A DNA stretch of 64,000 nt, from assembly GCA_019454875.1 (NCBI GenBank), contig JACFNL010000008.1, positions 1,567 to 65,566 of the forward strand, given 5' to 3'. The stretch comes from Candidatus Cloacimonadota bacterium (GTDB lineage: Bacteria > Muiribacteriota > UBA6191). This document shows positions 6,566 to 27,213 of the stretch, in pieces. The notes under the pieces are model-generated. The model did not search any database, was not told the origin of the DNA, and was given only the letters and a program-made list of their open reading frames with translations. The position numbers were made by a program, and so were the translations under genes. Every line of letters starts with the position of its first letter. The stretch's first letter is position 1.

Positions 6566-9217
6566 ATGAATCTGAGCGATCTTTTAAACGAACATCCTGT
6601 GCTTGAGCTGGATCTTTTTAATCTGTTAAGAGTCAATTTTCAGGAAGTCTGCAAGTTTGTTTCCTTACGAATCTATGATAATGAGGCTAAGATTTTATTG
6701 CAGGAGGGTGAAGAAACTCCGGTACTGGATGTGTCAGGACTGCAACAGATTGCCGCAAAAGAGTATGAAACAACCAAAGACCAGATGCTTCACTGGGTCC
6801 ACCTTTTAATTATCAACTCAGTGCATGAGGGTTATATAGAAGTCCTCTGTGCAAACCTCGAAAGCCCGGGACAAGACCTACTCCTGATTGCAAAAAGTTT
6901 GAGGCTTGCCGTACTTTCCCGCATACAGATTTGTGAAAAATCACTGGCTTTGGACAACTATCAGACCAGACTTAGACATCAGTCCAATCAACTGTCCAGG
7001 ATTCAGGACAACTTTGAAGTTATGTCAGAACAGAACCTGAGTAAAAATCGTGAACTGGAACGATTGTTTGAAGAAAAGTCTGAACTTTTGAATCAGGTAT
7101 TACAAAGAGCCAGAATGCTTGATCTGCTTCAGGATGTGAACTATCAGAATGAGGCGGAATTTTTATCCCGTTGCTGCTCGATTATCAGTGAACATCTGCA
7201 TGCAGCCAGTAGTCTTATATGGATGCTTGATAGGGATAATCAGCGCCTTTTAGTCGTTTATGCAGATGGGGTGCAGGCAGAACATGAAATCACTCAGGAT
7301 CTGGTATCCGGAGTTGTGGGCCGCTGTTTTCAGCTCAAGGAGTCCTTGTATTCCAACGGCCCGGATTTACAGGAGGCACTACCAGCTGGAATTCGTGTGC
7401 CCAATCAGGATGGAACCATTCAATCCGTACTGGTTACCCCCATTGAGTTTCGTCAGGAAGCCATTGGGGTATTGCAGATATTTAACAAGTCCAGAGGTTT
7501 TGAGGCAGATGATCTAAAAATCGCCTCTGATATTGCCCGCTCCCTGACCAGTCACCTGAACATTCACAAACTGATTTCTTCCCAGATTGCGGCTAAAATG
7601 GAGCTTGAATCCCTTCTTGCTACCATTCCTGATGTGGTTTACAAAATTGATCCCAATGGAATGATTCGTTATCTCAGTCCAGCTATTGAGACTTTTGGAT
7701 ATAAAGTCAGTGACCTGGTCGGCAAACATTTTGACAATTTTATCCGCACCGAGACCTATCCATCCATCAGTCGTCCTACTGCTCTTGAAAACTCCAGGCC
7801 CGGAAGCCAGATTCATCTGTTTGATGAACGAAGAACAGGGCCAAGGGCTACCAAAGGTCTTGAAATCCAGATCAAACCGGGGCCCAATTTAAAACACAAT
7901 AGCCAGATTTATGGGGAAGTGAACAGTTCGGGATATTGGCAGAACTCCATCCGTAACACTCCTGAATTTCGAGGAAGTATCGGGATCATTCGTGATATTA
8001 CCAATCGTAAGGCGGCAGAAAGCAGCCTCGTTCGGGTTCGTGAAGACAAGGCAAAGCTCGAGGCCCAGCTGCTACAGCTTCAAAAGATGGAGATCATCGG
8101 AACCCTCGCTGGTGGTATAGCCCATGATTTTAACAATATTTTGCAGCCCATTTTAGGCTATACCTATCTTCTATTACAGGCTACCACTCCTGAATCCAAT
8201 AATTATGGATACCTTAACAATATCTGGACAGCGGCCAACCGGGCCAGGGATCTGGTAAAACAGATTTTGACCTTAAGCCGTCAGGCAGAATTTCAAAGAA
8301 CTCCTTTTGATTTGAAAACCATTATCAATGAGGTAGTACAGCTGATTCGCGCTTCTTCCACCCCTGATATCAGCTTTCGGGTCAACCTTGCACCTGTACC
8401 CCTTGTCATTTTGGGGGACCCTTCCCAGATCCACCAGGTACTGATGAATTTGTGTACCAATGCATGCCATGCCATGATCGATTGTGGGGGAACTCTGGAA
8501 ATATCTGCCGATGTCGTCAATGCCAGCCCACAGACAATCAAGGGTCTGCCGGGATTTCATGAAGCCCCCCATATCCGCCTTCTGGTTCGCGATGAAGGGC
8601 ACGGTATGGACAAGGTTACCCAGGAAAGAATTTTTGAACCATTTTTCACCACCAAAAAACCTGGTGAGGGCACGGGCCTTGGGTTGTCTGTTGTTCATGG
8701 AATAGTAGCCAACCATTCCGGCCTGATTCAGGTACAAAGTGTACAGAATACCGGAACAACCTTTACAGTCTATATTCCCTGCCATATGGAATCTGTGGAA
8801 AATCCTAGCCAGATGAAACGGACACAGATACAGGAACGAGGCAAAATTCTATTTGTTGACGATGAGGAAATTATCACTCAGTTAGGCAAGGATGTGCTGG
8901 AACGATTTGGTTATGAGGTAGATATAACTACTGATTCTTTGGAAGCATTAAAACGAATTAAAGATAACCCCAGCCACTATGACCTATTGATAACCGATAA
9001 TTTTATGCCCAATCTGACAGGCATTGCATTGGTTGAATCTGTACGATCCATCAATCCTGATTTACCTGTTATTTTAACAACAGGTAACGATTTGCGGGGT
9101 ACTTCCAACAAACTGTCACAGTACCCCAAAACCGCATATCTTTTTAAACCGATCAGCTCCGATGAAATGTATCAGGCTATTCAAAGCCTCTTAAAACCTC
9201 AACGGGAAGGACGATAG
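6566..9217 (+). CDS. hybrid sensor histidine kinase (coiled-coil, GAF, PAS, HisKA, HATPase, C-terminal receiver); no TM segments
   Basis: H-box [16 protein letters not shown]-box [11 protein letters not shown], receiver ILFVDDEE...[10 protein letters not shown]...LFKP. Upstream are a GAF-like region and a PAS-like region ([18 protein letters not shown]). Confidence 0.85.
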
Positions 9218-10803
9218 TCAAGAAGCCTTGAGTCAAAGCGAATACCCTGGGCTTCTGCCTGACGAACTCTTGAAAAATAGGCCGCACCATGAAGAATGGC
9301 CTCAGCCACTACCGAGGCATTTCGGCTTTGTGGTTCGGAAAGATATGTCCCTTTTACCCAGTCATTAAAAGCTCCCATAGCTGGGCCGGCCCAAATCTGA
9401 TAGTCCATTTCCCGGCCCTTTTCCCCTGAGTTTGCCCAGCGGGAAGACAATCCAAGATACCAGCGAAAAACCAATGCCATTTTTTGTTTAGGATCGGCCT
9501 CTGCCATGTGAACCTGTTCAGGATCCCGGCTTAAAAAATAAGCTCTTGTATCGGTCCAGATCTGTTCCAGACTTCTTCTAAAAATCTGGGTCTCCAGACG
9601 GCTTTTTTCGTCTTGTGGAATAGATTCGAGGCTAGGATAGGTACGATATATCTCATAAAGTTTCTGAGCACGCATGGGAAAGAGGGTCCCCCGCTTTAAA
9701 ACCTGTAGCTTAACACCCATTTCAAACATATCCGCAGCCGGAGCCATTGCTACATCCGCCATTTCTGCCTGAGCCAGAACTTTCCTTACATGATCACAGG
9801 ATCCTGATTCCACACAGGCCTGATTTACGGAGCCGGTCACGATAAACGAAGCTCCCATCATATAAGCACCAAGGGCGGACAAAGGTGTTGAAATTCCTCC
9901 CCCTGCCCCTACCCGAAGCGGAGGAGAATAGTGGAATTCAGCCTGAATCTCGTCCCTAAGGCCCAGAATCGAAGGTAAAAGACAGGGTAGTGGACGATTG
10001 TCCGTGTGTCCCCCAGAATCAGCTTCAACAATGATGTCATCACACATAGGTACACTCTTGGCCATTTCCATCTGTTCTTTTGTGATTTGATTGGCCAAAA
10101 GAAGCTTCTCTAAAAACTTAAGCGGGGCGGGACGCATAAACTTGGATGCCACTTCCCGGCGCGAAATTTTGGCAATCACGCGATTGCCTGTTTCAATGGT
10201 GTTATCCGATCTTCGTTTTAAACCGGCCACACGATACCGTACAATATGTTCAGTCAAATCAAGAAAAGCCGAGGCCTCTACTGTTTTTACCCCATACTTC
10301 AAATAAAGATCCACAGCCCCTCTCTCCAATGCTTCCTCACTTGGAGAGTGGATCAGATTAAAGGCATACGGTCCATTGGGCAGTTCTTTCTGAATCCTGT
10401 GAATTGCCTGTTCAACCCGGGAAGGAACTAGACCTGCTGCTCCAAAAGATGCAAGATACCCAGACTTGCCAAGTGCAATCACTAGCTCTTCACTTGCAAT
10501 TCCATTGGCCATAGCTCCCGCCATATAAGCTGCTTTCACCCCGTGAGCCTTCAAAAACTCAGGATCACCAAGGCGGCTGATATCCTGGGCGGGAATCCTG
10601 GCCAGGATTTCAAATCCTAGACCTTCTGTATTGATTTTCCCATCCTGATAAATGACTGGACCGTCCTTACCTAAGACCACAAATAAGGGTTGAGACAGAT
10701 TAGACAAGGCTTTGCGAATTTCGGCCTCGGATACAATCGGATGCTGTTCACTATTGGAAAGCCATAACTTCTGGGACGAAGCCCAAGCTGTAGTTGATAT
10801 CAT
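9199..10803 (-). CDS. PfaD-family enoyl-reductase-like protein (FMN-dependent, NMO/2-nitropropane dioxygenase fold)
   Basis: AAYMAGAMANGIASEELVIALGKSGYLASFGAAGL is the signature stretch of PfaD / trans-AT PKS enoyl reductases. 534 aa fits PfaD (~540 aa), not the short NMO (~330 aa). Confidence 0.75.
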   Translation of the reverse strand: MISTTAWASSQKLWLSNSEQHPIVSEAEIRKALSNLSQPLFVVLGKDGPVIYQDGKINTEGLGFEILARIPAQDISRLGDPEFLKAHGVKAAYMAGAMANGIASEELVIALGKSGYLASFGAAGLVPSRVEQAIHRIQKELPNGPYAFNLIHSPSEEALERGAVDLYLKYGVKTVEASAFLDLTEHIVRYRVAGLKRRSDNTIETGNRVIAKISRREVASKFMRPAPLKFLEKLLLANQITKEQMEMAKSVPMCDDIIVEADSGGHTDNRPLPCLLPSILGLRDEIQAEFHYSPPLRVGAGGGISTPLSALGAYMMGASFIVTGSVNQACVESGSCDHVRKVLAQAEMADVAMAPAADMFEMGVKLQVLKRGTLFPMRAQKLYEIYRTYPSLESIPQDEKSRLETQIFRRSLEQIWTDTRAYFLSRDPEQVHMAEADPKQKMALVFRWYLGLSSRWANSGEKGREMDYQIWAGPAMGAFNDWVKGTYLSEPQSRNASVVAEAILHGAAYFSRVRQAEAQGIRFDSRLLDYRPSR

Positions 10804-12077
10804 AATACATCCATAAAAGCAGAGACGGAAAATACCGCCTTTCCTGCTCCAACAGGCCCATAACCTATAGGTTCAGGCAATTGATACTTGCGAAATGTGT
10901 CGCGAAACTCCTGTAGAAGTCTACAAAAATACAGTAAGGGCGGAGCAGGCTGGGGGCCTAATTTTGCATGGGGTTCGGGACACCATGAGGTAAATCGAGG
11001 CATAATTCCTTTGGACATAAAAAACTCAAGCCCGGCTTTAGTTGAAGAAATTGCTTCCTCAACATCGGAATAGCCGTAGTTCTGATTCATCTCCACACCG
11101 GCTACAAAATTTGGAATGACACACTCAGGGCCAAAAACCTCAGCCGAATCTACAATCCTTGCAATCCATTCATCTCGGCCAATAACTCTGGTTTTTCCCG
11201 GACAAATCAGAGGAAAAAGTTTGGGATCCCATACCTCATAGTTTGGGTGATAGATCCGAACCCCGCTGTCTTTAAGAAGTTTACAGTCATCTCGGGTAAA
11301 GGCCTGAACTACAGCCTTGATTATCCAGCGATCTGAAAACTGTTCCTGAATGGCTTTTGCATAACGGGCATAAAAGGACACCTCTCCCTCACCCCGCAGA
11401 TTTTCAATGATGGAACCCCCGGTAATGGTCAGAGCCTTGGCTACCGTGTCCTCTTCCTTGATATACAATAGTGCTTCCAGAATTTCGGCTTCAGACTTGA
11501 CTGCTGTATAAGGTCGGCCCGCTTTTCTCTGCTGCTCATAATTGCGGTTCAAGTCACAGAACTGGCACTGTTCTTCACGATTAAAATACTGACACATGCG
11601 ATATACAGTCAGATAAATCAGATAACCCCATTCAATGACCGGGGCCACTTCACCTAAAGCCTTGCCATTGGACATTTGCCTTTTGTAATAAGCCGGAACC
11701 GGGTGGTACAAAACCTCGGAAATTTCTTCCTCCTCACAATAGAGGCGAAGCTGTCCCTCCTGTAAGCGAACCTGCCAGGGTGAATTTGGATTCACTCTTA
11801 CGGAAACAATGGTTGGCAAAAGATCACGGGAACCACCGCGAAACTGAATTTCCTCGGGAGCCCTGAGATGTTCCTCCTGCTGCATCTCAGCAATGGGAAT
11901 CAAATCAAAGGAGAATATGAAATAATCCTTAGGTTTATAACCAGAAGCAATTCTTAAGGAGTCTGGACTAAAGGACAGGCCTTCTCTTAGGATATCCTGT
12001 TTAAATACAGCTTCTATCGGAAGATCAGAAAATTGATCGGCTAGTTTGGATACGGATTCAAAATGTTTAAGCTTCAT
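10800..12077 (-). CDS. Cys-rich hypothetical protein, possible non-canonical radical-SAM/Fe-S enzyme (425 aa)
   Basis: Cys triad C162-x8-C171-x2-C174 (MCQYFNREEQCQFC) followed ~45 aa later by TITGGSIIEN (GGE-like SAM motif). 4-bp overlap with the PfaD start. Confidence 0.4.
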   Translation of the reverse strand: MKLKHFESVSKLADQFSDLPIEAVFKQDILREGLSFSPDSLRIASGYKPKDYFIFSFDLIPIAEMQQEEHLRAPEEIQFRGGSRDLLPTIVSVRVNPNSPWQVRLQEGQLRLYCEEEEISEVLYHPVPAYYKRQMSNGKALGEVAPVIEWGYLIYLTVYRMCQYFNREEQCQFCDLNRNYEQQRKAGRPYTAVKSEAEILEALLYIKEEDTVAKALTITGGSIIENLRGEGEVSFYARYAKAIQEQFSDRWIIKAVVQAFTRDDCKLLKDSGVRIYHPNYEVWDPKLFPLICPGKTRVIGRDEWIARIVDSAEVFGPECVIPNFVAGVEMNQNYGYSDVEEAISSTKAGLEFFMSKGIMPRFTSWCPEPHAKLGPQPAPPLLYFCRLLQEFRDTFRKYQLPEPIGYGPVGAGKAVFSVSAFMDVL

Positions 12078-12696
12078 TATGCAATTGAAAATGTCGGGCC
12101 ACTGCTGGCGGAATATTTAAAAACACGATTTTTGTATCAATCTGCCGCTCTTTTATAAAACCTTCTAATATTTGATTAACCTGAGTTCCGGTAGTTGACC
12201 CAATAAGTCTTGTAACAAGACTTCTGAGCTTTCGTACCCCAAGATATTCAAAATAACTAAGATACCCTTTTGGTTTTAAAAGCCGCATATAACTTTGCAA
12301 AATTGATTGCACTACTGGTGGTTCAAAATTGTTTAAGGGAAGTCCAGAAACGATATAATCAAAAGAAAGCCCTTCTTTAAGATGTTCCAGATAACAGCGT
12401 TTGATGTGAACCGTAACCCCAGTTAATGACTGTTTCCAAACAGTCTGGCGTTTTTCCTCTAAAATTTCACAAAAACGGGGATTTGCCTCTACCAGCCACA
12501 ATTCATCTCCTGGCACAAGATTCATGATGATCCGATTTGTCACCGCACCGGTTCCAGGTCCAACTTCAAGAATTGCCTTATTACCCTGATGTTTTTTTAA
12601 ACGCCAGATCAAGGCATCAGCCAGAAACTGTGATGATGGAAAGAGGGAGCCTACTTCTTGGCGATTCTGCCCAAACTGTCTGATAAAATCCAGCAA
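12067..12696 (-). CDS. class I SAM-dependent methyltransferase (209 aa)
   Basis: Motif I ILEVGPGTGAVT; overall small-MTase fold pattern. Confidence 0.65.
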   Translation of the reverse strand: MLDFIRQFGQNRQEVGSLFPSSQFLADALIWRLKKHQGNKAILEVGPGTGAVTNRIIMNLVPGDELWLVEANPRFCEILEEKRQTVWKQSLTGVTVHIKRCYLEHLKEGLSFDYIVSGLPLNNFEPPVVQSILQSYMRLLKPKGYLSYFEYLGVRKLRSLVTRLIGSTTGTQVNQILEGFIKERQIDTKIVFLNIPPAVARHFQLHNEA

Positions 12697-12706
12697 AAAT
12701 GACTCC

Positions 12707-14173
12707 TTAATACCCTTTTATTAATGCACTGTACAACTGCTGATATACATGGGCCGATTTTTCCCAGGAAAAATCCGTGCGCATGCCTCTTTGTTGTACC
12801 ACATACCGTACTTCAGGGTAATTGTACAGACCAAGAGCCCTGTCCACAGCATTTAAAAATGCCTCTCTACTGTATTGATGAAACACATATCCGTTTCCGT
12901 TATCTGGATGTTCGTCACAATCAAAAACGGTATCAGCCAGACCACCAGTAGAAAAGACAATGGGAATAGTTCCATAACGGAGGGAATACATCTGATTCAA
13001 TCCACAGGGTTCATAACGCGAAGGCATGAGAAAATAATCAGAAGCTGCCTCAATCAGGTGGGCCAGGGTATTGTCATATTTGATAAAAGCCCTGACCTGC
13101 CGGGGATACTTTGACTCAAAATACTTCAGTGAATTGGCAAACTGCTGCTCACCTGAGCCAAGCACAACAATCTGAGTGCCCTTGGCCAGAATTTCTTCAA
13201 ATGCACTTTCCAGAAGTCGAATACCCTTCTGTGCAGCAAATCGGGCTACAATTCCCATGAGGGGAACATGTTTCCAAAAAGGTAGTCCAAGAGATTCCAG
13301 AAACTTCTGTTTTAAAATCTCCTTGTTTCCCATTTCATCGGCTGAATAATTATACCCACCCAGATGCGGATCTGTTGCCGGGTTCCATTCATCCATGTCA
13401 ATACCATTCAGAATTCCAAAAATACGATTGGAACGGGCCTGTAATACATATTCCATACCACATCCATATTCAGAACCCTGAATCTCCCAGGCATAGGTCG
13501 GGGAAACTGTCGTGATAAAATCACTGTATTGAAGTCCAGCCTTAAGATAGGATGAAGAACCATGCATTTCCATACCGTCAAAGCGCATTACTGAATCTGA
13601 AAGATCAAACTTGCGATGAATGGTGGGCCCAAACCAGCCCTGATAGGCCAGATTATGAATGGTAAACACAATTTTAGTCCCATAAAAAAATGGGTCCTGG
13701 GCATATTTTAATCGAAGAATTGGCCCTAAAATTCCGGTCTGCCAATCATTGATATGAATAATATCAGGCTTCCAGTTCTCTATTTTACACATCAATAAAG
13801 CCGCTTCACACAGGTAGGCAAACCTCTCATCGTTATCACCAAAATCACCATGGGAATCCCCGTAAATGCCGTCCCTGTGATAATAGTGAGGTTGATGAAC
13901 CAGATATCGTTTCACCCCGTTGACATGATGGTATACCAGTGTTCCATCCACCTTCCATCCTGAGATGTGAATATGAAAATCAGCCCCTTTTTCCAGGTTT
14001 TTTGCCTTGGCAAAACTATAAAAAGGTAATACGGTTCTGACTTCTTCGCCTACTCTTGCGAGCGCGTCCGGGAAGGCCCCGGCTACATCGGCAAGACCGC
14101 CACTTTTGCAATAGGGCACCATCTCAGACGCAATGAATAGAACTTTTGCCATTGATTCACTCCTTAAGGGCAT
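12707..14173 (-). CDS. glgA: glycogen synthase (ADP-glucose type)
   Basis: N-terminal KVLFIASEMVPYCKSGGLADVAGAFP is the GlgA signature; 488 aa. Confidence 0.9.
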   Translation of the reverse strand: MPLRSESMAKVLFIASEMVPYCKSGGLADVAGAFPDALARVGEEVRTVLPFYSFAKAKNLEKGADFHIHISGWKVDGTLVYHHVNGVKRYLVHQPHYYHRDGIYGDSHGDFGDNDERFAYLCEAALLMCKIENWKPDIIHINDWQTGILGPILRLKYAQDPFFYGTKIVFTIHNLAYQGWFGPTIHRKFDLSDSVMRFDGMEMHGSSSYLKAGLQYSDFITTVSPTYAWEIQGSEYGCGMEYVLQARSNRIFGILNGIDMDEWNPATDPHLGGYNYSADEMGNKEILKQKFLESLGLPFWKHVPLMGIVARFAAQKGIRLLESAFEEILAKGTQIVVLGSGEQQFANSLKYFESKYPRQVRAFIKYDNTLAHLIEAASDYFLMPSRYEPCGLNQMYSLRYGTIPIVFSTGGLADTVFDCDEHPDNGNGYVFHQYSREAFLNAVDRALGLYNYPEVRYVVQQRGMRTDFSWEKSAHVYQQLYSALIKGY

Positions 14174-15627
14174 TCAATCTGGTATTTTTCCCGCAACAAA
14201 GATTTCAAAATCTCATTTACCTTGCCAGGATTGGCCTTGCCTCTGGTTTCTTTCATAATCTGACCAACCAGAAATCCAAATGCCTTCATCTTGCCGGCCT
14301 GCATATCATGGACCGATTGTGAGTTGTTTGTCAAAACTGCCAGAATAATTTCCTGAATCTGGGAATCATCAGAAATTTGTGTGAGACCACGGCTTTTGAC
14401 AATCGATTCCGGTTCCGATCCTTCTTTGTACATTTCTTCAAAAACATCCTTGGCAATTTTTCCGGAAATCACACCCGAATCAATCAGATAAACGAGTTTG
14501 CCTAAATGGGATGCCTTGATTTTACAATCGCGAATGGGTAACAGATCCTTGTTTAACTCTCGAAGCAGTTCCGATAGAATCCAGTTGGAAATTGATACCG
14601 GGTTATTATGAGAGCGAACCGCTTCTTCAAAATAGTCACTCAATTCCCGATCCTCAGCCATCAGCCTGGCATTATAAGCAGGGATCTGATAGGTCTTTAT
14701 AATTCTGTCTACCTTTTTATCGGGAAGTTCAGGCAACAACTGTGAAACTTCTTGAATCATATCTTGCGTGATATGAACCGGGGGTAAATCCGGTTCAGGA
14801 AAATAGCGGTAGTCATCGGCATTTTCCTTGGTACGCATGACTCTGGTTTCACCTTTTACATCATCCCAAAGCATGGTCTGCTGCAAAATTCTCTGATCCC
14901 TTTTTATCTGCCTTACCTGCCGCTTTTTTTCATATTCAAGGGCTCTTACTACGGAGCGAAAAGAATTCATGTTTTTGATTTCTACCTTGGTTCCGAATTT
15001 CTCAGTACCAACAGGTCGAACCGAAACATTCACATCACAGCGCAGTGAGCCATTTTCCATATCACAGTCAGATACCCCAATGTAGCGCATGATAAGTTTT
15101 AACTTTTCAAGATAGGCTCTGGCCTCTTCCGGTGTTCGCATATCTGGTTCAGATACAATTTCTAAAAGAGGTACACAGGCTCGGTTGTAATCCACTAGGG
15201 TTTCCCCGTTTTCAGCGTGCAAAGATTTTCCCGCATCTTCTTCCATGTGGATTCTGGTGACCCCAATTAGCCTTTCACTGCCGTCTTCCAGTTCAATACG
15301 GATACGGCCTCTTTCTCCAATTGGCTTATCAAACTGGGATATCTGGTAGGCTTTGGGTAAATCCGGGTAAAAATAGTGTTTTCTGTCAAACTTGGTTTCT
15401 TTGGTGATATCACATTCCAAAGCCATGCAGGCCTTCATAGCGTATTGTAATACATTCTGGTTTAACACAGGCAATACCCCGGGAAGCCCCATACACACCT
15501 CGCACACATGGGTATTGGCCGGTTTGTTGGAATAGTCTGTCGAGCAGTTACAAAAAATTTTGGTTTTTGTATTGAGCTGCACATGGACTTCAAGTCCAAT
15601 TACTGTCTCAAATTCTTCTTGGCTCAT
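14164..15627 (-). CDS. gatB: Asp-tRNA(Asn)/Glu-tRNA(Gln) amidotransferase subunit B
   Basis: FETVIGLEVHVQLNTKTKIFC N-terminus, 487 aa; overlaps the gatA stop. Confidence 0.9.
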   Translation of the reverse strand: MSQEEFETVIGLEVHVQLNTKTKIFCNCSTDYSNKPANTHVCEVCMGLPGVLPVLNQNVLQYAMKACMALECDITKETKFDRKHYFYPDLPKAYQISQFDKPIGERGRIRIELEDGSERLIGVTRIHMEEDAGKSLHAENGETLVDYNRACVPLLEIVSEPDMRTPEEARAYLEKLKLIMRYIGVSDCDMENGSLRCDVNVSVRPVGTEKFGTKVEIKNMNSFRSVVRALEYEKKRQVRQIKRDQRILQQTMLWDDVKGETRVMRTKENADDYRYFPEPDLPPVHITQDMIQEVSQLLPELPDKKVDRIIKTYQIPAYNARLMAEDRELSDYFEEAVRSHNNPVSISNWILSELLRELNKDLLPIRDCKIKASHLGKLVYLIDSGVISGKIAKDVFEEMYKEGSEPESIVKSRGLTQISDDSQIQEIILAVLTNNSQSVHDMQAGKMKAFGFLVGQIMKETRGKANPGKVNEILKSLLREKYQIECP

Positions 15628-17129
15628 AAATGGTTTCCTTTAAGCATTACTTCCATAGCCTGAGCATAGGTAAACAACTGGTCTTCTTTAAGGGCAGGCG
15701 TAATGAGCTGAATACCAACCGGCAACTGATTTGTGGTTCTAGGCACGGGTATAGAGATAGCTGGTAATCCCGCAATACTCACGGGAACTGTGCAGATATC
15801 AGCCAGGTACATGGCCATAGGATCTTCAGTTTTGGCCCCTAGTGAAAATGGTGGGAAAGGTGAGGTTGGAGTCAGAAGTACATCACATTGAGTGAAGGCA
15901 TGATCAAAATCCTGGCGAATGAGAGTACGCATTTTCTGGGCTTTTAGATAAAATGCATCGTAATACCCTTCGGAAAGTACATAGGTACCAAGAATGATTC
16001 TTCTTTTAACCTCTGCTCCAAACCCCAGACTGCGATTCTTAAGGTACAAATCATCAAGATTTCCACCCTCATGCAGGCGAGGCCCGTACCGCACTGAATC
16101 GTAGCGGGCAAGATTAGAAGAAGCCTCGGCTGAAGATAAAATGTAATACACAGGAAGACAGCGGTTCACCAGTTTAAGAGAAACAGAAACTACCCTGGCT
16201 CCCATTTTTTTCAAATTCTGTATGGTCTGATCCATAGCCTCAGAAACTTCTTTATCTATACCCTCTCCCATAAACTCTTCTGGTACTCCCACAACCAGAT
16301 CGGCAAGGCTTCCCGTATCTTTTTTAAGTGGGGTCCACTTTGGGGTATGGGTCAGACTGGTGGCATCCTGATTATCTTTTCCGCTAATAACCTGATGAAC
16401 AAGCATGGCATCCTCAACACACAGAGCCAGAGGACCAATCTGGTCAAAAGAAGAAGCAAAGGCCACCAGACCCCGTCGAGAAACCGTGCCGTAGGTTGGT
16501 TTTAAACCCACCACGGAACAGAAAGATGCAGGCTGACGAATAGAACCACCTGTATCAGAACCCAGAGCCACTGTACAAAACCCGGCGGCCACTGCCGCAG
16601 CACTGCCTCCCGATGAACCACCAGGAACCAGATTTCGATTTAATGGATTTTTTACCGGTCCATAGGCTGAATTTTCATTGGAAGAACCCATGGCAAACTC
16701 ATCACAGTTTAGTTTGCCCATGATGATGGCCCCTGCTTCCCTGAGCCGTTTTACAACCGTTGCCTCATAAACAGGCGAAAAACCTTTAAGAATTTTACTG
16801 GCACAGGTAGTTGTCATTCCATGTACATGGATATTGTCCTTGATTCCGGCAAACACCCCTTCAAGCTCGCGCATGGCCCCGCCACTATTAAGCCTTTGAT
16901 CAGAAGCTTTGGCATCTAAAATCACCTGATCAGGATCAATGGATAAAAAAGCATTGATATCGGGATTGTGTTTTTGGATGGCATCAAGATATTGTCTGGC
17001 CAGAGATTCACAAGTAAGAGTCTTACCCTTTAACCCAGCCTGTATTTCACTTATTGTCAGTCGATTGGCCTGCATCGGTTCTCCTCTGCCCTTAAGGGCA
17101 TCCTGAAAAGCCGAGGCATTATAACTCAA
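15624..17129 (-). CDS. gatA: Asp-tRNA(Asn)/Glu-tRNA(Gln) amidotransferase subunit A (amidase signature)
   Basis: GGSSGGSAAAVAAG amidase signature; 501 aa; immediately upstream of gatB. Confidence 0.9.
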   Translation of the reverse strand: MSYNASAFQDALKGRGEPMQANRLTISEIQAGLKGKTLTCESLARQYLDAIQKHNPDINAFLSIDPDQVILDAKASDQRLNSGGAMRELEGVFAGIKDNIHVHGMTTTCASKILKGFSPVYEATVVKRLREAGAIIMGKLNCDEFAMGSSNENSAYGPVKNPLNRNLVPGGSSGGSAAAVAAGFCTVALGSDTGGSIRQPASFCSVVGLKPTYGTVSRRGLVAFASSFDQIGPLALCVEDAMLVHQVISGKDNQDATSLTHTPKWTPLKKDTGSLADLVVGVPEEFMGEGIDKEVSEAMDQTIQNLKKMGARVVSVSLKLVNRCLPVYYILSSAEASSNLARYDSVRYGPRLHEGGNLDDLYLKNRSLGFGAEVKRRIILGTYVLSEGYYDAFYLKAQKMRTLIRQDFDHAFTQCDVLLTPTSPFPPFSLGAKTEDPMAMYLADICTVPVSIAGLPAISIPVPRTTNQLPVGIQLITPALKEDQLFTYAQAMEVMLKGNHL

Positions 17130-17134
17130 TTGAT

Positions 17135-17911
17135 TCAGATTTCGTAGAAGATAAGATCCTGTTCTTCACCGATGCCGGATTCGCCCACACTAGGCCTGTC
17201 GAGCTTGGAAAGTTTTTCCTGGGAATATGGTCTTTCAAAGTATTGGGGCAAATACCATACCTTCTGGTGCTGAATAGCCCGAAACAGGCCTTCCTGCACT
17301 TCCTGGTAAAACAGGCACTGGGCATAATACTTGAGATTTTTTTCCAGAAGTTTTAGCTGCAAGGGAGAAGCTTTGGCAATCAGGGACATCAAAACTGGTA
17401 AAAGACTTTGTCTGTTCTCTTTTAAGAGGGTCAAAAACGCAGCAATTACCACACAGTTATTCGAATCCTGAAGGTACTGAAGCAACTGAAAAGTAAAACA
17501 GTGAGAATCCATCCAGCCCATAAGGATTGCAGCCACAATTCTATCATTACAGCCCTTGCTGCCCCTCAACTCAGAGATGACGGAAATCAGTTCGGACTGG
17601 GGGAAACTTCCACAATGCCTGGCTACATGAAAACGGATATCTCCACTTTCGTTGCGATCAAGAAGAATACTTCTAAATGCATTCCAGCTCTCGGATCCTG
17701 AAAATAATTCAGCGATCAGAACTACACATTTAAGCCGTATTACCTGCCGTCTGTGGGACAATCCCTGCTTTAAAATCTCCAGAGCTTCTTCTCCGAGATA
17801 CAATAAAGCCTCTCTGTCCTCAATAATCTCCTCAACATCAGGCAGATTGGTTTCGCAATCCAACGCACTGTCGTCTTCGAGAAAGTCACAGAGGTTTATA
17901 ATATTATTCAT
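17135..17911 (-). CDS. HEAT-repeat-like hypothetical protein (258 aa); first gene of the gatAB-glgA operon
   Basis: Repeated helical units (DIRFHVARHCG, NDRIVAAILMGW). Not GatC (too long, no GatC motifs). Confidence 0.45.
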   Translation of the reverse strand: MNNIINLCDFLEDDSALDCETNLPDVEEIIEDREALLYLGEEALEILKQGLSHRRQVIRLKCVVLIAELFSGSESWNAFRSILLDRNESGDIRFHVARHCGSFPQSELISVISELRGSKGCNDRIVAAILMGWMDSHCFTFQLLQYLQDSNNCVVIAAFLTLLKENRQSLLPVLMSLIAKASPLQLKLLEKNLKYYAQCLFYQEVQEGLFRAIQHQKVWYLPQYFERPYSQEKLSKLDRPSVGESGIGEEQDLIFYEI

Positions 17912-18053: not shown

Positions 18054-18205
18054 CAAAGAAAATATGCCTTTAAATACTGGCTTGAGGCCATGATTTGTTC
18101 TTGTTTATTTTTGTTGGTTCTTGCAGACTTGTCCGTGCTTTGATCAAATTTGTCTTGTCGGCCTTTCTCATGGTATACAGACATGAAAAATCTAAGGGAG
18201 AGAAA

Positions 18206-18967
18206 ATGCTTCAGGGAAAAAAAGGAATCATATTCGGGATTGCTAATGACAAAAGTATTGCCTGGGGTTGTGCCCGCTCCATCAAAGCCCTTGGGGGCGA
18301 GTTCGGTATTACCTATGCCGGGGACATAATGGAAAAACGGGTTCGACCATTAGGTGAAGAGATCGGGGCCGGTTTTATTGAAAACTGTGACCTGACCAAA
18401 GAAGATGATATTGCCCGGGTGATGGAAAAAGCCTCACAAACCTATGGAAAAATTGATTTTTTAATTCATTCCGTGGCTTATGCCAGTAAAGAAGCCCTGT
18501 CCAACCCTGATATTTCTTCGGTGAGTCTTGAGGCCTTCAGTGAAGCCCTGACTATTTCTGCCTGGACATTTATAGCAATGGCCAAACATGCAAAACCCAT
18601 CCTGAATCCTGGCTCAAGCCTAGTAACAATGACCTATTACGGTGCACAGCGGGCCATACAGAACTATGGACTGATGGGAGTAGCTAAAGCGGCTCTTGAA
18701 GCTGAGGTTCGTTATCTTGCCAATGAATTTGGAGCCACCGATACAAGGGTAAATGCCATTTCTGCAGGAGCAATCCGTACCCTTGCTGCCTCAGGTATTA
18801 AGGGGTTTCGTGACATGCAGACCATAGCTGCTGAAAAATCGGCTATCAAAAGGGCTGTTACCTCTGAGGAAGTAGGAGATACTGCCGCATTTCTAGTCGG
18901 GCCATTAAGCACAGGTATTACTGGCCAGATTTTGTTTGTGGATATGGGTTACAGTGCCAATGGCTGA
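18206..18967 (+). CDS. fabI: enoyl-ACP reductase (NADH), FabI
   Basis: MLQGKKGIIFGIANDKSIAWGCARS N-terminus is typical of FabI. Start moved from 18095 to the ATG at 18206, which is preceded by AAGGGAGAG. Confidence 0.85.
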   Translation: MLQGKKGIIFGIANDKSIAWGCARSIKALGGEFGITYAGDIMEKRVRPLGEEIGAGFIENCDLTKEDDIARVMEKASQTYGKIDFLIHSVAYASKEALSNPDISSVSLEAFSEALTISAWTFIAMAKHAKPILNPGSSLVTMTYYGAQRAIQNYGLMGVAKAALEAEVRYLANEFGATDTRVNAISAGAIRTLAASGIKGFRDMQTIAAEKSAIKRAVTSEEVGDTAAFLVGPLSTGITGQILFVDMGYSANG

Positions 18968-20949: not shown

Positions 20950-21523
20950 ACAATCTGGAGTTAGCCGTACAAAGCCAGTTCCAGCATCCTAGACTGTCGT
21001 AATGCAAAGGCTGCCCCTTCTGCATGGTGTACATAAGTTTAGCCTGTAAAATTTTTTTCATGGCAGAACCAATATCCTGTAAAGCCAGCTTCATATCCAT
21101 CGGGTCATAAAACTCCCTGCCCGGTTCAATCTGATCTGCTACATACAACACCATATCGGACAAACTCATGTTTTCCCTTCCAGTTGTATGCCAGCGAATT
21201 GGTTCTGCCCATTCTTCTGGTAGATTAAATTCATGAATGGCTAGATAATGAGCTGTTTTTGCATGCCACAATGCAGGAGATTTTAAAGTCATAAGATCAG
21301 GTTTGACTTCCTCAAGAAGTTTTAACTGCTGTGGTTTAGGCAATTCCTTGGTTCTGTCATGTAATATAGCCGCCATTTTAATTGGCAATGGATCCAGATC
21401 ATAGTTTTTGGCCAGAGTTACAGCAGTGTCAACAACTCCAAGGATATGCAAAAATCGAGGTGCAGAAACCGAGTTTTTTACTACCTCAAGGGCCTGGTTA
21501 CAGCGATTTTCCCAGTTCATCAT
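20939..21523 (-). CDS. yqeK: HD-domain phosphohydrolase, YqeK-like
   Basis: HILGVVDTAVTLAKNYDLDPLPIKMAAILHDRTKE matches the YqeK H...HD motif layout; 194 aa. Confidence 0.65.
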   Translation of the reverse strand: MMNWENRCNQALEVVKNSVSAPRFLHILGVVDTAVTLAKNYDLDPLPIKMAAILHDRTKELPKPQQLKLLEEVKPDLMTLKSPALWHAKTAHYLAIHEFNLPEEWAEPIRWHTTGRENMSLSDMVLYVADQIEPGREFYDPMDMKLALQDIGSAMKKILQAKLMYTMQKGQPLHYDSLGCWNWLCTANSRLYEA

Positions 21524-22493
21524 TTAACAGCATCTCTAAAATCTGTGCTCTGTTCATCAGAGGAACACAGTCCGATTTATACACATTCTCAGGTACCTGC
21601 TTAGGTCTTTGCTGAAAACCAACCACCAGCATATCCTCCATCTCATGACACATGGAGCGTTCATTCTCAAACAGGAGTTCCTCATGCATTTTTTCGCCTT
21701 CACGAACCCCAACCACATCAATAGGCACGGACAACAAACCGCGAGCCCTGGCAAATTCTGTGTTGATGACAGACACCAGATCTCCCATACGGACCGAGGG
21801 CATTTTCATGATAAAAATTTCGCCCCGCGAGGCCAGTTCAGCACCCTTTAACACAAGGCTCACAGCCCTTTGCATGGTCATCAGAAACCGGGTCATATCC
21901 GGATGGGTCAGGGTCAGGGGATTTCCCTGCTTTAACTGCTCAAAAAATAAAGGCAGAACGGAACCTCTTGTTCCCAGCACATTTCCGAAGCGGACACAGG
22001 AAAAAACGGTGCGGCGGCTACCCTTGTAACGGTGGGCTGTACGCATCAGCTTTTCGGCCAGAAGTTTGGTGGTTCCCATGGTATTGACCGGATTTACAAC
22101 CTTATCGGTTGATATCAATACTACTTTTTCCACATTCATCTTCATGGCTACTTCAATCACATTCTGGGTGCCAATCACATTGGTTTTGACAGCTTCAAAC
22201 GGGTTGTCCTCACAGGAAGGTACCTGTTTTAAGGCAGCAGCATTAAACACATAGTCCGCACTTTCCATAGCCATAGTCAATCGTTCCTTGTCACGGATAT
22301 CCCCTAACAAAAAGCGAATTCTGGGATTATGGCCCAAGGACTGGGCAAGTTTATACTGCTTGTATTCATCCCGGGACAAAACCCGGACTGAAGCAGGGTT
22401 CTGATCAAGTATGTCCCTTACCAGAGAACCACCAATTGAGCCGGTGCCCCCTGTTACCAGGATATTTTTCCCTTTGAGAAAATCAGATCCCAT
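21498..22493 (-). CDS. pseB: UDP-N-acetylglucosamine 4,6-dehydratase (inverting), PseB/FlaA1-like
   Basis: ILVTGGTGSIGGSL Rossmann motif, STDKVVNPVNTMGTTK, FGNVLGTRGSVLPLF; 331 aa as for PseB. Confidence 0.8.
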   Translation of the reverse strand: MGSDFLKGKNILVTGGTGSIGGSLVRDILDQNPASVRVLSRDEYKQYKLAQSLGHNPRIRFLLGDIRDKERLTMAMESADYVFNAAALKQVPSCEDNPFEAVKTNVIGTQNVIEVAMKMNVEKVVLISTDKVVNPVNTMGTTKLLAEKLMRTAHRYKGSRRTVFSCVRFGNVLGTRGSVLPLFFEQLKQGNPLTLTHPDMTRFLMTMQRAVSLVLKGAELASRGEIFIMKMPSVRMGDLVSVINTEFARARGLLSVPIDVVGVREGEKMHEELLFENERSMCHEMEDMLVVGFQQRPKQVPENVYKSDCVPLMNRAQILEMLLNDELGKSL

Positions 22494-22522
22494 TCTACTC
22501 CTCGTTCAAAAAACATGCCATT

Positions 22523-23671
22523 CTAACGGTTTATGGACATTCTGCCAACCATAGCCTTAGGAGGATAAGCAGGATTTTTACCGGTAGTTTTCATTATTCC
22601 ACCATTGCGGGCAGAATCATAGATAGACTCAATTAACTCAAGGGTACGAATTCCATCCCGCACAGATGCCAGGGATTCCACCTGCCCCTGTATGCCCAAA
22701 ACCAGATGATTCAGTCTTTCAAGATACGGGTTTTTAGCTTTAGGCAACAAAATGGGCATTTCTTCCAGAAAATACCCACCCTTTTGTCGTCTTAACCAGA
22801 CGGACTGAGAATTTCCATGCAGAATTCTGGCCTTCTCAAAACCCAGCTCCAGGGCAAAATGAAAATATTTTCTTTGTCCACCACACAAAAAACTGACGGT
22901 AGGTCCATCTTTGAAATACATACTGCCAAGGCAGGTATCTTCTGTATGAACCCTTTGTGAGGATCGGGTACAGATTGCCTGAACCCATCCAGGATCCCCT
23001 AGCAGAAATAAAACCAGATCTACCAGATGGGTGCCGTCATGAAGCATGGGGCCACCAAACTGAAGGTTGGCTTTTCGTTTTCCTTTACCCTCAGCAAAAG
23101 ATCCACAGTTAATCTCTATGCGTATGTGTTGTAATGCTCCAAATTTTCTGGATTGAATCAGCCTCTTAAAATACTGAAACTCCGTATAAAATCTGCGATC
23201 ATGACAGACCACAATAAAAGCCTTCATCTCATCACAAAGTGACTGAATCAACAAGGCTTCCCCAACATTCATTCCTACAGGCTTTTCCAAAAGAATTCCC
23301 AAAATAGTGGGATACAAACTCTGATATTTGGCCAGGGTTTTTATCACTTCAAGGTGTGAAGAAGAAGAGACAGCTACAGATACCACCGAGGGTCTGGTTG
23401 ATATCAGAAATTCCAGCAGGTTTTGGGATGCGATCTGGCTCTTTGGGTAATTTTTTAAAAATTCCTCAGCCGAATCAGGATCCTGATCATAACCACCAAC
23501 CAGTTCAAAATCAGGATGAGCTTCAAATGAACCTGCATGGGTACAGGGAGAGGCACGAAACCTGTCTCCTTCCAGAGAAAACCCAATCCGGCCCAGACCA
23601 ATAACTACGGACCTATACAAGGGAATACCCAATCCCGGCTTCCAGATCATCCAAAAAAAATACTTCTGCAT
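22523..23671 (-). CDS. Gfo/Idh/MocA-family NAD(P) oxidoreductase
   Basis: VVIGLGRIGFS dinucleotide fold at the N-terminus, 382 aa; true start may be downstream of the annotated ATG (overlaps the upstream gene). Confidence 0.55.
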   Translation of the reverse strand: MQKYFFWMIWKPGLGIPLYRSVVIGLGRIGFSLEGDRFRASPCTHAGSFEAHPDFELVGGYDQDPDSAEEFLKNYPKSQIASQNLLEFLISTRPSVVSVAVSSSSHLEVIKTLAKYQSLYPTILGILLEKPVGMNVGEALLIQSLCDEMKAFIVVCHDRRFYTEFQYFKRLIQSRKFGALQHIRIEINCGSFAEGKGKRKANLQFGGPMLHDGTHLVDLVLFLLGDPGWVQAICTRSSQRVHTEDTCLGSMYFKDGPTVSFLCGGQRKYFHFALELGFEKARILHGNSQSVWLRRQKGGYFLEEMPILLPKAKNPYLERLNHLVLGIQGQVESLASVRDGIRTLELIESIYDSARNGGIMKTTGKNPAYPPKAMVGRMSINR

Positions 23672-24584
23672 CCAGCTTAAGCATTTTTAATCCATCACGA
23701 ATTTGTGGTTCATAATTCATGCCAAGTCCTAATGCCCATTGCAAAAGATAGGTGGCAAAGTCTGCTCCTGAGGCAATTGTTAAGGGAATTCCACCTGAGA
23801 ATCGGGGATTAACCTCAAGAAAATAAAACTCATTCTCAAACTCAATACACTGAACATTCCATGGACCAGCAAGATTAAAATCTGGCGCAACATTTTTGAT
23901 AAGGTCAATCAGTTTGGTATTCTGAACTACAACTCCCACATCGGACACCCCGGAACGGACTTTTTTTCTTAGTCTTGAAACCAGGGCAACAGGCTTTTTG
24001 GCATCATCACAAAAGACATCAACCGTATACTCTGGGCCTGCCATAAATTTTTGTAAAAATGGGTGTTTCATCCTGGGAAGATTGGCTATCAAATCCTGAT
24101 TGGAGTTTAAAAGGTACTGATTGACGGATCCGAATCCAAAATCTTCTTTGAGGATCAGGGGGTAGTCAGAAACATCTTTTAAATCATCAAACACCTTAGG
24201 TACCTTAAGCCCTAATTTCTCAAATGCCGCGCTTCCAAGACTTTTTTGTAACCACGGTCTGTATTGAGCTGGATGGGAACATAATAGTCTGGCGGGAATT
24301 TCATCTGCGCGCTGCGACAGGTACAGAAGATCCAGATCATTACCTGGCAGAATATGGGTTATCTCATACTTTTGTATCAGGCAAAGAATTGCCAAATGGT
24401 GTTCATCACTAAAGGTTCTGGGAACTATTTCAAAAGCATCACAAAAAAACAGGGAAGGTGTATCCAATTCAATTTCTGTGCCTACTAAAAACAGAGATAC
24501 ATCCAGATTTTTTGCAGCACGACGCAGGTGGCGAATCAGACTTACTCTGCGCCCTGTACTTAAAACAAGGATTCGCATTTTCAT
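23613..24584 (-). CDS. ATP-grasp domain enzyme (carboxylate-amine ligase-like)
   Basis: MKMRILVLSTGRRVSLIRHL N-terminus and EYTVDVF...NPRFSGG C-terminal region typical of ATP-grasp enzymes found in sugar-modification clusters. Confidence 0.6.
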   Translation of the reverse strand: MKMRILVLSTGRRVSLIRHLRRAAKNLDVSLFLVGTEIELDTPSLFFCDAFEIVPRTFSDEHHLAILCLIQKYEITHILPGNDLDLLYLSQRADEIPARLLCSHPAQYRPWLQKSLGSAAFEKLGLKVPKVFDDLKDVSDYPLILKEDFGFGSVNQYLLNSNQDLIANLPRMKHPFLQKFMAGPEYTVDVFCDDAKKPVALVSRLRKKVRSGVSDVGVVVQNTKLIDLIKNVAPDFNLAGPWNVQCIEFENEFYFLEVNPRFSGGIPLTIASGADFATYLLQWALGLGMNYEPQIRDGLKMLKLDAEVFFLDDLEAGIGYSLV

Positions 24585-25510
24585 ACCTTTGGTCTTGGAT
24601 GATCCTCTGGCTGAAATGGAATATCACAGACGGCACAAAGCCCATGGCAGGACTTAAAACCATGATTTTTTTTCAGGTTTTCCTTGCGTTTGACTAAATA
24701 GGTTCTCAAATCAAGCATGGCCTGTGAATTCCAGGCAGCCATGACACCCTGTTCACTATTGCCCAAGGGATATTTGCCATCATAGTCCACACAACAGGGA
24801 ACAAAAGTTCCATCCCATAAAACTGCCATCGATCGCCAGGGATAGGAGCATACGGAATAATGATCCTCAAGATTCACATCCTTGAGTGAGTTTAAATATC
24901 CAGTCCAGTTTCTCCAGACCTTAACGGCAACTTCATCTGGGTTTAAGGCTTCCATTCTGGCCTTGAATTCAGGAAATGCGTCCCGGGTTTCCTCCATATC
25001 AATAATTTCAATCGAAATTCTGGTCTGAGACTGCATGGACTTTTTTATGGCAATAGCCGACTGTATATTTTTGAGTGTGGTTTCGTAATTACCCTTGACC
25101 CTCACACTCTCATAGATTTCTTTACTGATTCCTTCAAAGGAGATGGTGAGATAATCCAGTCCTGATTCAAACAACATTCTGGCCTTGTCCTCAAACAGAA
25201 AGGAAGCATTGGTATTCAGACGAATCTGAAGACCGTGCTCTTTGCCAAGCTTTAACATCTGTTCCAAGCCCTTATGCATCAAAGACTCACCTAAAAAAAA
25301 CAGATTGATCTTTTTGACCCCTGATTTGGCCGCATCCTCTATCAGTTTTTCATAAACTTCAAGGGACATAAATCCCTTTTTGCGGGTCTGATCCTTTTGA
25401 GGACAGAATACACAGGCTAAATTGCAGTGGTTGGTTGGCTCAATAAAAAGAGTGTAGGGCCCATCTGGCAGATACACTTCCCGGTTATGATACGCTTCTA
25501 TGTTTCGCAT
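24581..25510 (-). CDS. radical SAM protein with C-terminal SPASM-like Cys cluster
   Basis: Canonical CNLACVFC (CxxxCxxC) motif, FLGESLM (GGE-like); C-terminal CCVDYDG...CHGLCAVCD. Confidence 0.75.
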   Translation of the reverse strand: MRNIEAYHNREVYLPDGPYTLFIEPTNHCNLACVFCPQKDQTRKKGFMSLEVYEKLIEDAAKSGVKKINLFFLGESLMHKGLEQMLKLGKEHGLQIRLNTNASFLFEDKARMLFESGLDYLTISFEGISKEIYESVRVKGNYETTLKNIQSAIAIKKSMQSQTRISIEIIDMEETRDAFPEFKARMEALNPDEVAVKVWRNWTGYLNSLKDVNLEDHYSVCSYPWRSMAVLWDGTFVPCCVDYDGKYPLGNSEQGVMAAWNSQAMLDLRTYLVKRKENLKKNHGFKSCHGLCAVCDIPFQPEDHPRPKV

Positions 25511-27210: not shown

Positions 27211-27213
27211 GGT

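Follow-up and report, generated by a model that had tools for sequence, protein, structure and literature searches.

Overlapping genes at the tail of a seven-gene operon

We analyzed a 64-kb stretch of DNA from a Candidatus Cloacimonadota bacterium (64,000 nucleotides of contig JACFNL010000008.1, assembly GCA_019454875.1; hereafter, the window), in which three overlapping genes encode a 209-amino-acid (aa) methyltransferase, a 425-aa protein of the radical S-adenosylmethionine (SAM) type and a 534-aa PfaD-type enoyl reductase. The middle gene has orthologs that lie among genes of menaquinone synthesis in other phyla, and it is the main subject here. Together with four genes upstream, the trio forms a seven-gene operon on the minus strand, of which it occupies the 3′ end (Table 1). 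An original prediction, made from the nucleotide sequence, had described this arrangement as a translationally coupled module for lipid or metabolite modification. The layout that it gave was borne out, including the open reading frame (ORF) coordinates, the 11-bp overlap between the methyltransferase and radical-SAM genes (12067-12077) and the 4-bp overlap, ATGA, between the radical-SAM gene and pfaD (10800-10803).

Upstream of the trio, spacings and overlaps between neighboring genes did not exceed 10 bp, and a Shine-Dalgarno sequence, AAGGAG, was located ahead of the TTG start of the methyltransferase gene. The operon starts at 17911, divergent from fabI, and its 3′ end is convergent with the gene for a hybrid histidine kinase. 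No convincing internal terminator was found within the operon, where 14 terminator-like matches were counted against 10.4 ± 3.6 in shuffled sequence, and promoter-like matches within it were at or below the shuffled-sequence background. The first gene of the operon, a 258-aa ORF, had previously been labeled a HEAT protein; it returned no Pfam family at E ≤ 1e-5, which makes that label a tentative one.

A variant radical-SAM protein within one orthologous group

The 425-aa protein scored 186.9 bits against the NCBIfam model NF045502 ('variant_rSAM'), well above its cut-off of 125, and reached 20.7 bits with the Pfam model PF04055 (Radical_SAM), short of the gathering score of 29.5. Hence, of the radical-SAM profiles suggested earlier as a check, the subfamily model was passed and the general one was failed. 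TIGR04043 (MSMEG_0568 family), a distant relative, gave 37.5 bits, with a cut-off of 303.7. Profile searches with the protein produced no match to TIGR03700, TIGR03699 or PF19288/CofH_C, and a sequence search of the PDB returned nothing useful.

The canonical CX3CX2C spacing is not present in the protein. Instead, the three cysteines of the presumed [4Fe-4S]/SAM cluster site are arranged as C-x8-C-x2-C, and C162, C171 and C174 were invariant across 20 homologs that shared 57-69% identity and came from several phyla. T217, G220 and G221 of the TITGGS stretch (a TxTGG motif) were invariant in the same 20 homologs, and C292 and C366 were likewise invariant across homologs from several phyla. Because the cysteines and the TGG residues are invariant in these homologs, the triad is not a chance feature, and the suggestion in the original prediction that it marks a non-canonical radical-SAM site agrees with both the conservation and the NF045502 score. 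In a weak profile-profile alignment with CofH/MqnC-type enzymes (E = 1.4e-3, probability 18%), C171 and C174 fell on the second and third cysteines of CX3CX2C and the TGGS lay opposite the GG(D/E) SAM motif, which would fit a cluster loop lengthened by a five-residue insertion, from the usual CX3CX2C to CX8CX2C.

The protein has the (beta/alpha) barrel fold of radical-SAM enzymes. In its AlphaFold2 model, for which 20 homologs were used (predicted local distance difference test, 88.2; predicted template modeling score, 0.90), residues 1-150 formed an extra N-terminal domain with beta strands. The 425-aa protein is thus a predicted radical-SAM enzyme, for which cleavage of SAM is also predicted. 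In RadicalSAM.org, the CX8CX2C motif is given for subclusters of Megacluster-4-6, which are uncharacterized (PMC9477430). Our protein shares this motif and scores above the NF045502 cut-off, but neither that model nor the RadicalSAM.org listing carries a function.

At 90% identity, 2761 clusters matched the 425-aa protein. Its wider family comprised 738 representatives, within which its own, narrow orthologous group kept more than 50% identity across phyla. Since clustering at 50% left one full-length representative (55% identity), with the next full-length relatives at no more than 41%, the sequences place it within a single orthologous group under strong constraint. Carriers included Acidobacteriota, Planctomycetota, Leptospiraceae, Catenulispora, Streptomyces, Ktedonobacterales, Kapaibacteria, SAR324 and Myxococcota. 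The full-length relatives at 38-41% identity (P0364-P0371) represented separate subfamilies, and one of these (P0366, 717 aa) carried an N-terminal extension of approximately 300 residues.

We collected 170 loci with an ortholog of the 425-aa gene and compared their neighborhoods by tblastn with defined queries and by clustering of all ORFs. Species-representative genomes and metagenomes contributed 80 loci each, and contig look-ups supplied the remainder. Lineage groups were defined by clustering the loci at 75% identity of the radical-SAM protein (n = 42). In Leptospira, Catenulispora and Streptomyces the radical-SAM gene had only unrelated housekeeping genes around it. For actinomycetes, we considered and rejected a role in secondary metabolism, as the Catenulispora and Streptomyces loci were housekeeping neighborhoods and not secondary-metabolite clusters.

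Orthologs lie among futalosine-pathway genes in other phyla

In the futalosine pathway, the enzymes that canonically build the menaquinone head group are, in order of action, MqnA, MqnE, an optional deaminase, MqnB, MqnC and MqnD. Genes of the mqn families were present within 5 kb of the radical-SAM gene in 24 of the 170 loci, representing eight of the 42 lineage groups. Specifically, the neighbors that recurred across phyla were MqnA, MqnC, MqnD, an MqnB-like nucleosidase, MqnP and a hydrolase resembling aminofutalosine deaminase.

Across unrelated lineages, MqnA was both the most frequent and the closest neighbor. In eight loci it was encoded on the same strand, 51-146 bp from the radical-SAM gene; these came from Acidobacteriota (L054), a metagenome-assembled genome (MAG) labeled Legionella sp. 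(L081), Myxococcota (L078, with which L079 grouped), Ktedonobacterales/Chloroflexia (L073 and L075) and two metagenome contigs (L114 and L142). The MqnA neighbors matched solved chorismate dehydratases such as 7ahr (57-141 bits), not the MqnD structure.

MqnC-like genes were near the radical-SAM gene in 14 loci. In Ktedonobacterales, a bona fide MqnC (TIGR03699, 439.9 bits against a cut-off of 428.1) was encoded directly downstream. In Holophagae and Sulfidibacter the gene immediately upstream, and in Myxococcota an adjoining gene, encoded an MqnC-like protein below that cut-off (317-343 bits); such proteins may belong to a diverged branch of MqnC in co-evolution with the variant radical-SAM enzyme. 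Six CofH-family neighbors from separate loci were tested (L001, L003, L075, L078, L092 and L094), and for each the MqnC score exceeded the MqnE score by 90 bits or more. None of the 170 loci had two CofH-family genes within 5 kb, and an MqnE-type gene was not detected near the radical-SAM orthologs in approximately 2.3 Mb of flanking sequence.

The most extended arrangements were of the Kapaibacteria type (L005, L014, L016 and L094-L096). Here, the radical-SAM gene was preceded, in order, by genes for the deaminase-like hydrolase, an MqnP-like prenyltransferase, 3-deoxy-D-arabino-heptulosonate 7-phosphate (DAHP) synthase, an MqnD that resembles TTHA1568 and an MqnB-like nucleosidase of the futalosine-hydrolase type, and the clusters continued beyond it with aroA, aroE, aroK/B, aroQ and aroC. 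In L005, and also in L014 and L094, DAHP synthase, five shikimate genes, the mqn genes and the radical-SAM gene together made up a chorismate-to-menaquinone supercluster. An amidohydrolase resembling aminofutalosine deaminase was present near the radical-SAM gene in six loci in all. For comparison, MqnA, MqnC and MqnD have been reported from five of five Acidobacteria, five of five Planctomycetes and six of 22 Spirochaetes, the only carrier phyla that are fully covered by the table in question (Zhi et al. 2014, PMC3914697).

The PfaD and methyltransferase partners in the window

The 534-aa protein scored 664.7 bits against TIGR02814 (cut-off 449.25), over model positions 3-443 of 444, and contained both a FabD_helical_ins domain and the diagnostic PfaD stretch GAMANGIASEELVIALGKSGYLASFGAAGL. 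It matched the solved PfaD structures 6lkc and 4yx6 with 675 and 666 bits, compared with 400 and 361 bits for the trans-acyltransferase polyketide synthase (PKS) reductases DfnA and MlnA, and was 62% identical to PfaD of the Shewanella eicosapentaenoic acid (EPA) synthase. The score was only 15.5 bits for FabK and 20.7 bits for Pfam NMO (cut-off 28), which speaks against an ordinary nitronate monooxygenase. By these comparisons the protein is a genuine PfaD of the polyunsaturated fatty acid (PUFA) synthase type, with predicted activity as a flavin mononucleotide (FMN)-dependent enoyl reductase and an intact look as to function, and the family assignment of the original prediction stands.

No PUFA-synthase or PKS gene is nearby, again as first described: tblastn with PfaA, PfaB and PfaC segments found none in the window (E ≤ 0.01), and PfaA/B/C-like sequences (ketosynthase, KS; acyltransferase; dehydratase, DH; acyl carrier protein, ACP) were found by tblastn neither in the window nor in L087, a locus from the same lineage. 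In the canonical Shewanella pfaABCD arrangement, pfaD follows pfaA, pfaB and pfaC (e.g., L086), whereas its predecessor in the window and L087 is the radical-SAM gene, in an operon with gatA, gatB and glgA. Either pfaABC are located elsewhere in the genome or PfaD works with another partner. A lipid cluster of the ladderane/anammox type and a trans-acyltransferase PKS were both rejected, as the PfaD is of the PUFA type, KS and ACP genes are missing from the window, and the radical-SAM orthologs occur mainly in non-anammox phyla.

The 209-aa protein matched Methyltransf_25 (36.4 bits; cut-off 27) and Methyltransf_12 (36.3 bits; cut-off 30) in Pfam and contained LEVGPGTG, a SAM motif of the GxGxG type, in keeping with a Rossmann-type methyltransferase and with its earlier assignment to class I. 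The nearest solved structure was also a methyltransferase (9ko3, E = 1.3e-6). Like the lipid head-group N-methyltransferases PmtA and OlsG, which were its best NCBIfam matches, it is a small class-I SAM enzyme, but its scores were far under the equivalog cut-offs (PmtA NF045881, 45.9 against 250 bits; OlsG NF041658, 45 against 350 bits). Homologs carry the JGI label 'phospholipid N-methyltransferase'. The enzyme could methylate a lipid head group as these distant relatives do, or it could be a menaquinone C-methyltransferase, and the evidence favors neither.

Synteny of the trio

The gene for PfaD was located within 10 kb of the radical-SAM gene in two of the 170 loci, the window and L087. It follows that gene in these two alone among the 11 loci that make up the window's own lineage. 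The methyltransferase gene adjoined the radical-SAM gene in 11 loci, all of them within this lineage, and the methyltransferase homologs outside it (Gimesia benthica, L168; a Riflebacteria MAG, L170) had no radical-SAM neighbor. The stand-alone genes of Leptospira, Catenulispora and Streptomyces likewise speak against a trio module. In contrast to what a dedicated cassette for lipid or metabolite modification would require, the trio was therefore largely not syntenic, with L087, which has all three genes, as the exception.

The order gatA-gatB-glgA-methyltransferase-radical-SAM was found in all 10 of the 11 lineage loci that reach upstream (the window, L004, L006, L007, L087, L089, L169, L171, L172 and L173), the remaining locus, L088, being too short to show it. 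The 258-aa ORF was also kept at the same position in relatives, with 56% identity in L087. Because gatA, gatB and glgA are as syntenic as the methyltransferase gene, the operon mixes unrelated functions. In seven lineage loci, a gene for a protein of approximately 2100-2360 aa came after the radical-SAM gene, at the position that PfaD and the convergent histidine kinase occupy in the window, and because of this replacement the 3′ end of the operon is a rearrangement point in the lineage. The trio forms the end of an operon that is specific to the lineage and mostly housekeeping in content, and in which PfaD may be present or absent; it is not a dedicated cassette.

These proteins of approximately 2100-2360 aa had no Pfam match and a lipoprotein-like N-terminus where this was read (L004 and L006); they were also seen in L169, L171, L172 and L173. 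Additionally, a gene for an FMN reductase/flavodoxin-like protein of 173-176 aa (FMN_red/Flavodoxin_2) was located between the methyltransferase and radical-SAM genes, overlapping both, in L007, L169 and L173, and has no counterpart in the window.

In L087, the methyltransferase-radical-SAM-PfaD order and the ATGA overlap were retained and the proteins of the trio were 53-72% identical to those of the window; the arrangement is stable in this sub-lineage. Such stability, together with the translational coupling through the 11-bp and 4-bp overlaps, the weak resemblance of the methyltransferase to lipid head-group N-methyltransferases and the presence of FabI encoded divergently beside the operon, would suit an undescribed cassette in which the three enzymes jointly modify one lipid or acyl-ACP substrate by enoyl reduction, radical C-H functionalization and methylation. 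We consider this improbable, given that PfaD was missing from the flanks of 168 of the 170 ortholog loci and from nine of the 11 lineage loci, its place being taken by the very large protein in seven of the latter, and that no ACP, KS or DH gene was found in the window. Moreover, the operon is one of mixed functions by the synteny of gatA, gatB and glgA, and the radical-SAM protein is 54-62% identical to orthologs inside mqn clusters, which makes a different substrate unlikely.

The flavoproteins next to the radical-SAM gene raise another explanation. Radical-SAM enzymes require a one-electron donor, and the adjoining flavoprotein might supply electrons to the [4Fe-4S] cluster, with PfaD co-opted as an NAD(P)H-dependent reductase in the window and L087, and with L007, L169 and L173 using their 173-aa FMN reductase/flavodoxin-like protein instead. 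PfaD is itself an FMN enzyme, and its gene shows translational coupling to that of the radical-SAM protein; the flavodoxin-like gene overlaps both of its neighbors in the three relatives. We judge this role highly improbable: at least five lineage loci (L004, L006, L089, L171 and L172) had neither flavoprotein beside the radical-SAM gene, the close match of the window's PfaD to functional and solved PfaD proteins gives no hint of a change of function, and reduction of Fe-S proteins is not known for any PfaD.

A candidate role in menaquinone head-group synthesis

Because the orthologs of the 425-aa protein occur in operon-like arrangements with futalosine-pathway genes in other phyla, this context points to the menaquinone pathway, and we think it likely that the protein acts in synthesis of the head group. 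Which step it would catalyze is a more tentative matter. The product of MqnA is the substrate of MqnE, and MqnA being the commonest and closest neighbor suggests an MqnE-like step. All other canonical head-group enzymes (A, B, C and D) appear as neighbors, which leaves MqnE as the sole vacant slot, and the nucleosidase and deaminase neighbors imply an adenosine-bearing product. On this gene context the protein may be a non-orthologous functional equivalent of MqnE, a possibility that we put forward with some reserve.

Were this so, the 425-aa protein would act directly after MqnA. It would cleave SAM reductively to a 5′-deoxyadenosyl radical, which would react with 3-[(1-carboxyvinyl)oxy]benzoate to give aminofutalosine, in line with the mechanism of MqnE (summarized in PMC13459092). 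The proposal is one of functional equivalence only, since the protein has no sequence membership in the MqnE family (TIGR03700; PDB 6xi9). It differs from MqnE in having CX8CX2C in place of CX3CX2C and in the extra N-terminal domain of approximately 150 residues, and the co-encoding with futalosine genes was found for the orthologous group but not for the window.

The main alternative is that the radical-SAM enzyme serves menaquinone synthesis at a different or additional step, with MqnE encoded elsewhere. It might carry out a decarboxylation or some other late reaction on the head group where MqnL/MqnM are missing, modify the ring or side chain, or handle a by-product. The mqn context would be identical for this alternative, and parts of it are particularly suited: in Kapaibacteria-type clusters the gene is beside those for MqnP, MqnD and the MqnB-like nucleosidase rather than MqnA, no UbiD/UbiX-type decarboxylase is encoded in these clusters, and the low scores of the MqnC-like partners in Holophagae, Sulfidibacter and Myxococcota hint at altered chemistry. 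Its weak points are the prominence of MqnA, whose product MqnE would use, among the neighbors and the single slot that the neighbors leave vacant, and we regard it as unlikely.

Several observations weigh against a role in place of MqnE, or against a separate fate of PfaD. No mqn neighbor was present in 146 of the 170 loci. The absence of MqnE from the neighborhoods is not the same as its absence from the genomes. For the window itself, tblastn found no mqn gene in the 64 kb, nor in the 7-10 kb flanks of ten other loci of the lineage, and menaquinone synthesis by the organism is therefore putative. Finally, the ATGA overlap of the radical-SAM gene and pfaD has been kept between the window and L087 though these two proteins are only 64-72% identical, which speaks for co-expression at the very least and would be compatible with a functional link.

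Taking all of this together, we find the best explanation to be that the trio is a lineage-specific operon tail, in which the 425-aa protein serves menaquinone synthesis, possibly at the MqnE-like step, and to which PfaD has been added; we would give this account an even chance of being right. PfaD would have joined the operon at its 3′ end within a single sub-lineage, with its partners, if any, encoded outside the window. A broader version is that a widespread and hitherto unrecognized CX8CX2C aminofutalosine synthase, not orthologous to MqnE, replaces MqnE in the carrier taxa (Acidobacteriota, Planctomycetota, Leptospiraceae, Ktedonobacterales, Kapaibacteria, some actinomycetes and the window's lineage) and has become coupled to a stand-alone PfaD in the sub-lineage of the window, and this we hold to be conceivable, although rather doubtful.

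Other features of the window

Pfam scans of 39 other ORFs of the window revealed no quinone-related gene. The large ORFs encode SpoIIE phosphatases, an H+-PPase, DsbD and similar proteins, and enzymes of the tricarboxylic acid (TCA) cycle were also present, namely succinyl-CoA synthetase and two dehydrogenases of the isocitrate/isopropylmalate type. The TCA-cycle enzymes, DsbD and H+-PPase would fit a respiring cell.

Additionally, the window contains a cluster resembling those for sugar or nonulosonate biosynthesis. It encodes a canonical radical-SAM/SPASM protein together with a dehydratase (Polysacc_synt_2), an oxidoreductase of the GFO/IDH/MocA type, an ATP-grasp protein and a cytidylyltransferase, and two more of its ORFs had no Pfam match. 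Two adjacent, overlapping genes encode proteins of approximately 1030-1060 aa with C-terminal SpoIIE/PP2C phosphatase domains, one of them with a HAMP domain, and the long N-terminal regions of both had no Pfam match. Three further ORFs had no Pfam match at E ≤ 1e-5 (Table 1).

Table 1. Coordinates of the operon, of other features of the window and of genes at related loci. Positions without an L-number are those of the window.
Feature	Position	Strand	Remark
Methyltransferase ORF, 209 aa	12067-12696	minus	TTG start
Radical-SAM ORF, 425 aa	10800-12077	minus	middle gene of the trio
C162-x8-C171-x2-C174 codons	11556-11594	minus	presumed [4Fe-4S]/SAM cluster site
PfaD ORF, 534 aa	9199-10803	minus	3′ end of the operon
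glgA	12707-14173	minus	upstream of the methyltransferase gene, same operon
gatB	14164-15627	minus	upstream part of the operon
gatA	15624-17129	minus	upstream part of the operon
258-aa ORF	17135-17911	minus	first gene of the operon
Hybrid histidine kinase gene	6566-9217		convergent with the operon
fabI	18095-18967		divergent from the operon
Sugar/nonulosonate-like biosynthesis cluster	21498-28089	minus	
Radical-SAM/SPASM protein	24581-25510		inside the sugar cluster
SpoIIE/PP2C phosphatase-domain gene	44775-47963	minus	overlaps the next gene
SpoIIE/PP2C phosphatase-domain gene	47950-51036	minus	
ORF, 737 aa	34202-36415		no Pfam match
ORF, 399 aa	41770-42969		no Pfam match
ORF, 905 aa	58228-60945		no Pfam match
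MqnC-like partner below cut-off	L001:8909-10000		
MqnC-like partner below cut-off	L003:6890-7966		
MqnC-like partner below cut-off	L092:815-1855		
MqnC-like partner below cut-off	L078:11300-12241		
Chorismate-to-menaquinone supercluster	L005:2498-15716		
Protein of about 2100-2360 aa	L004:9641-16732		lipoprotein-like N-terminus
Protein of about 2100-2360 aa	L006:11630-18709		lipoprotein-like N-terminus
FMN reductase/flavodoxin-like gene	L007:4439-4969		
FMN reductase/flavodoxin-like gene	L169:6699-7220		
FMN reductase/flavodoxin-like gene	L173:6487-7008		

Implications

In the literature that we searched, there was no description of the CX8CX2C ortholog group, of a futalosine link for it or of a substitute for MqnE, and nothing on the combination of PfaD, a radical-SAM protein and a methyltransferase; the RadicalSAM.org listing was the sole mention of CX8CX2C clusters. 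The three families themselves are already catalogued; what is new, with respect to that literature, is the consistent link of the CX8CX2C radical-SAM ortholog group with the futalosine pathway. For annotation, the co-occurrence of genes for PfaD, a radical-SAM protein and a methyltransferase does not warrant the label of a lipid-modification cassette.

Menaquinone synthesis through the futalosine pathway serves both as a drug target and as a marker in the early evolution of respiration, and the steps that make the head group are regarded as fully assigned (MqnA, E, B, C and D). If the role proposed here is true, a second, unrelated radical-SAM enzyme would alter the way in which genomes and MAGs are scored for completeness of the pathway, be it a stand-in for MqnE or an extra step. 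It would also provide a second scaffold for the rare chemistry of adenosyl-radical addition, and would give a function to a catalogued cluster of CX8CX2C radical-SAM proteins.

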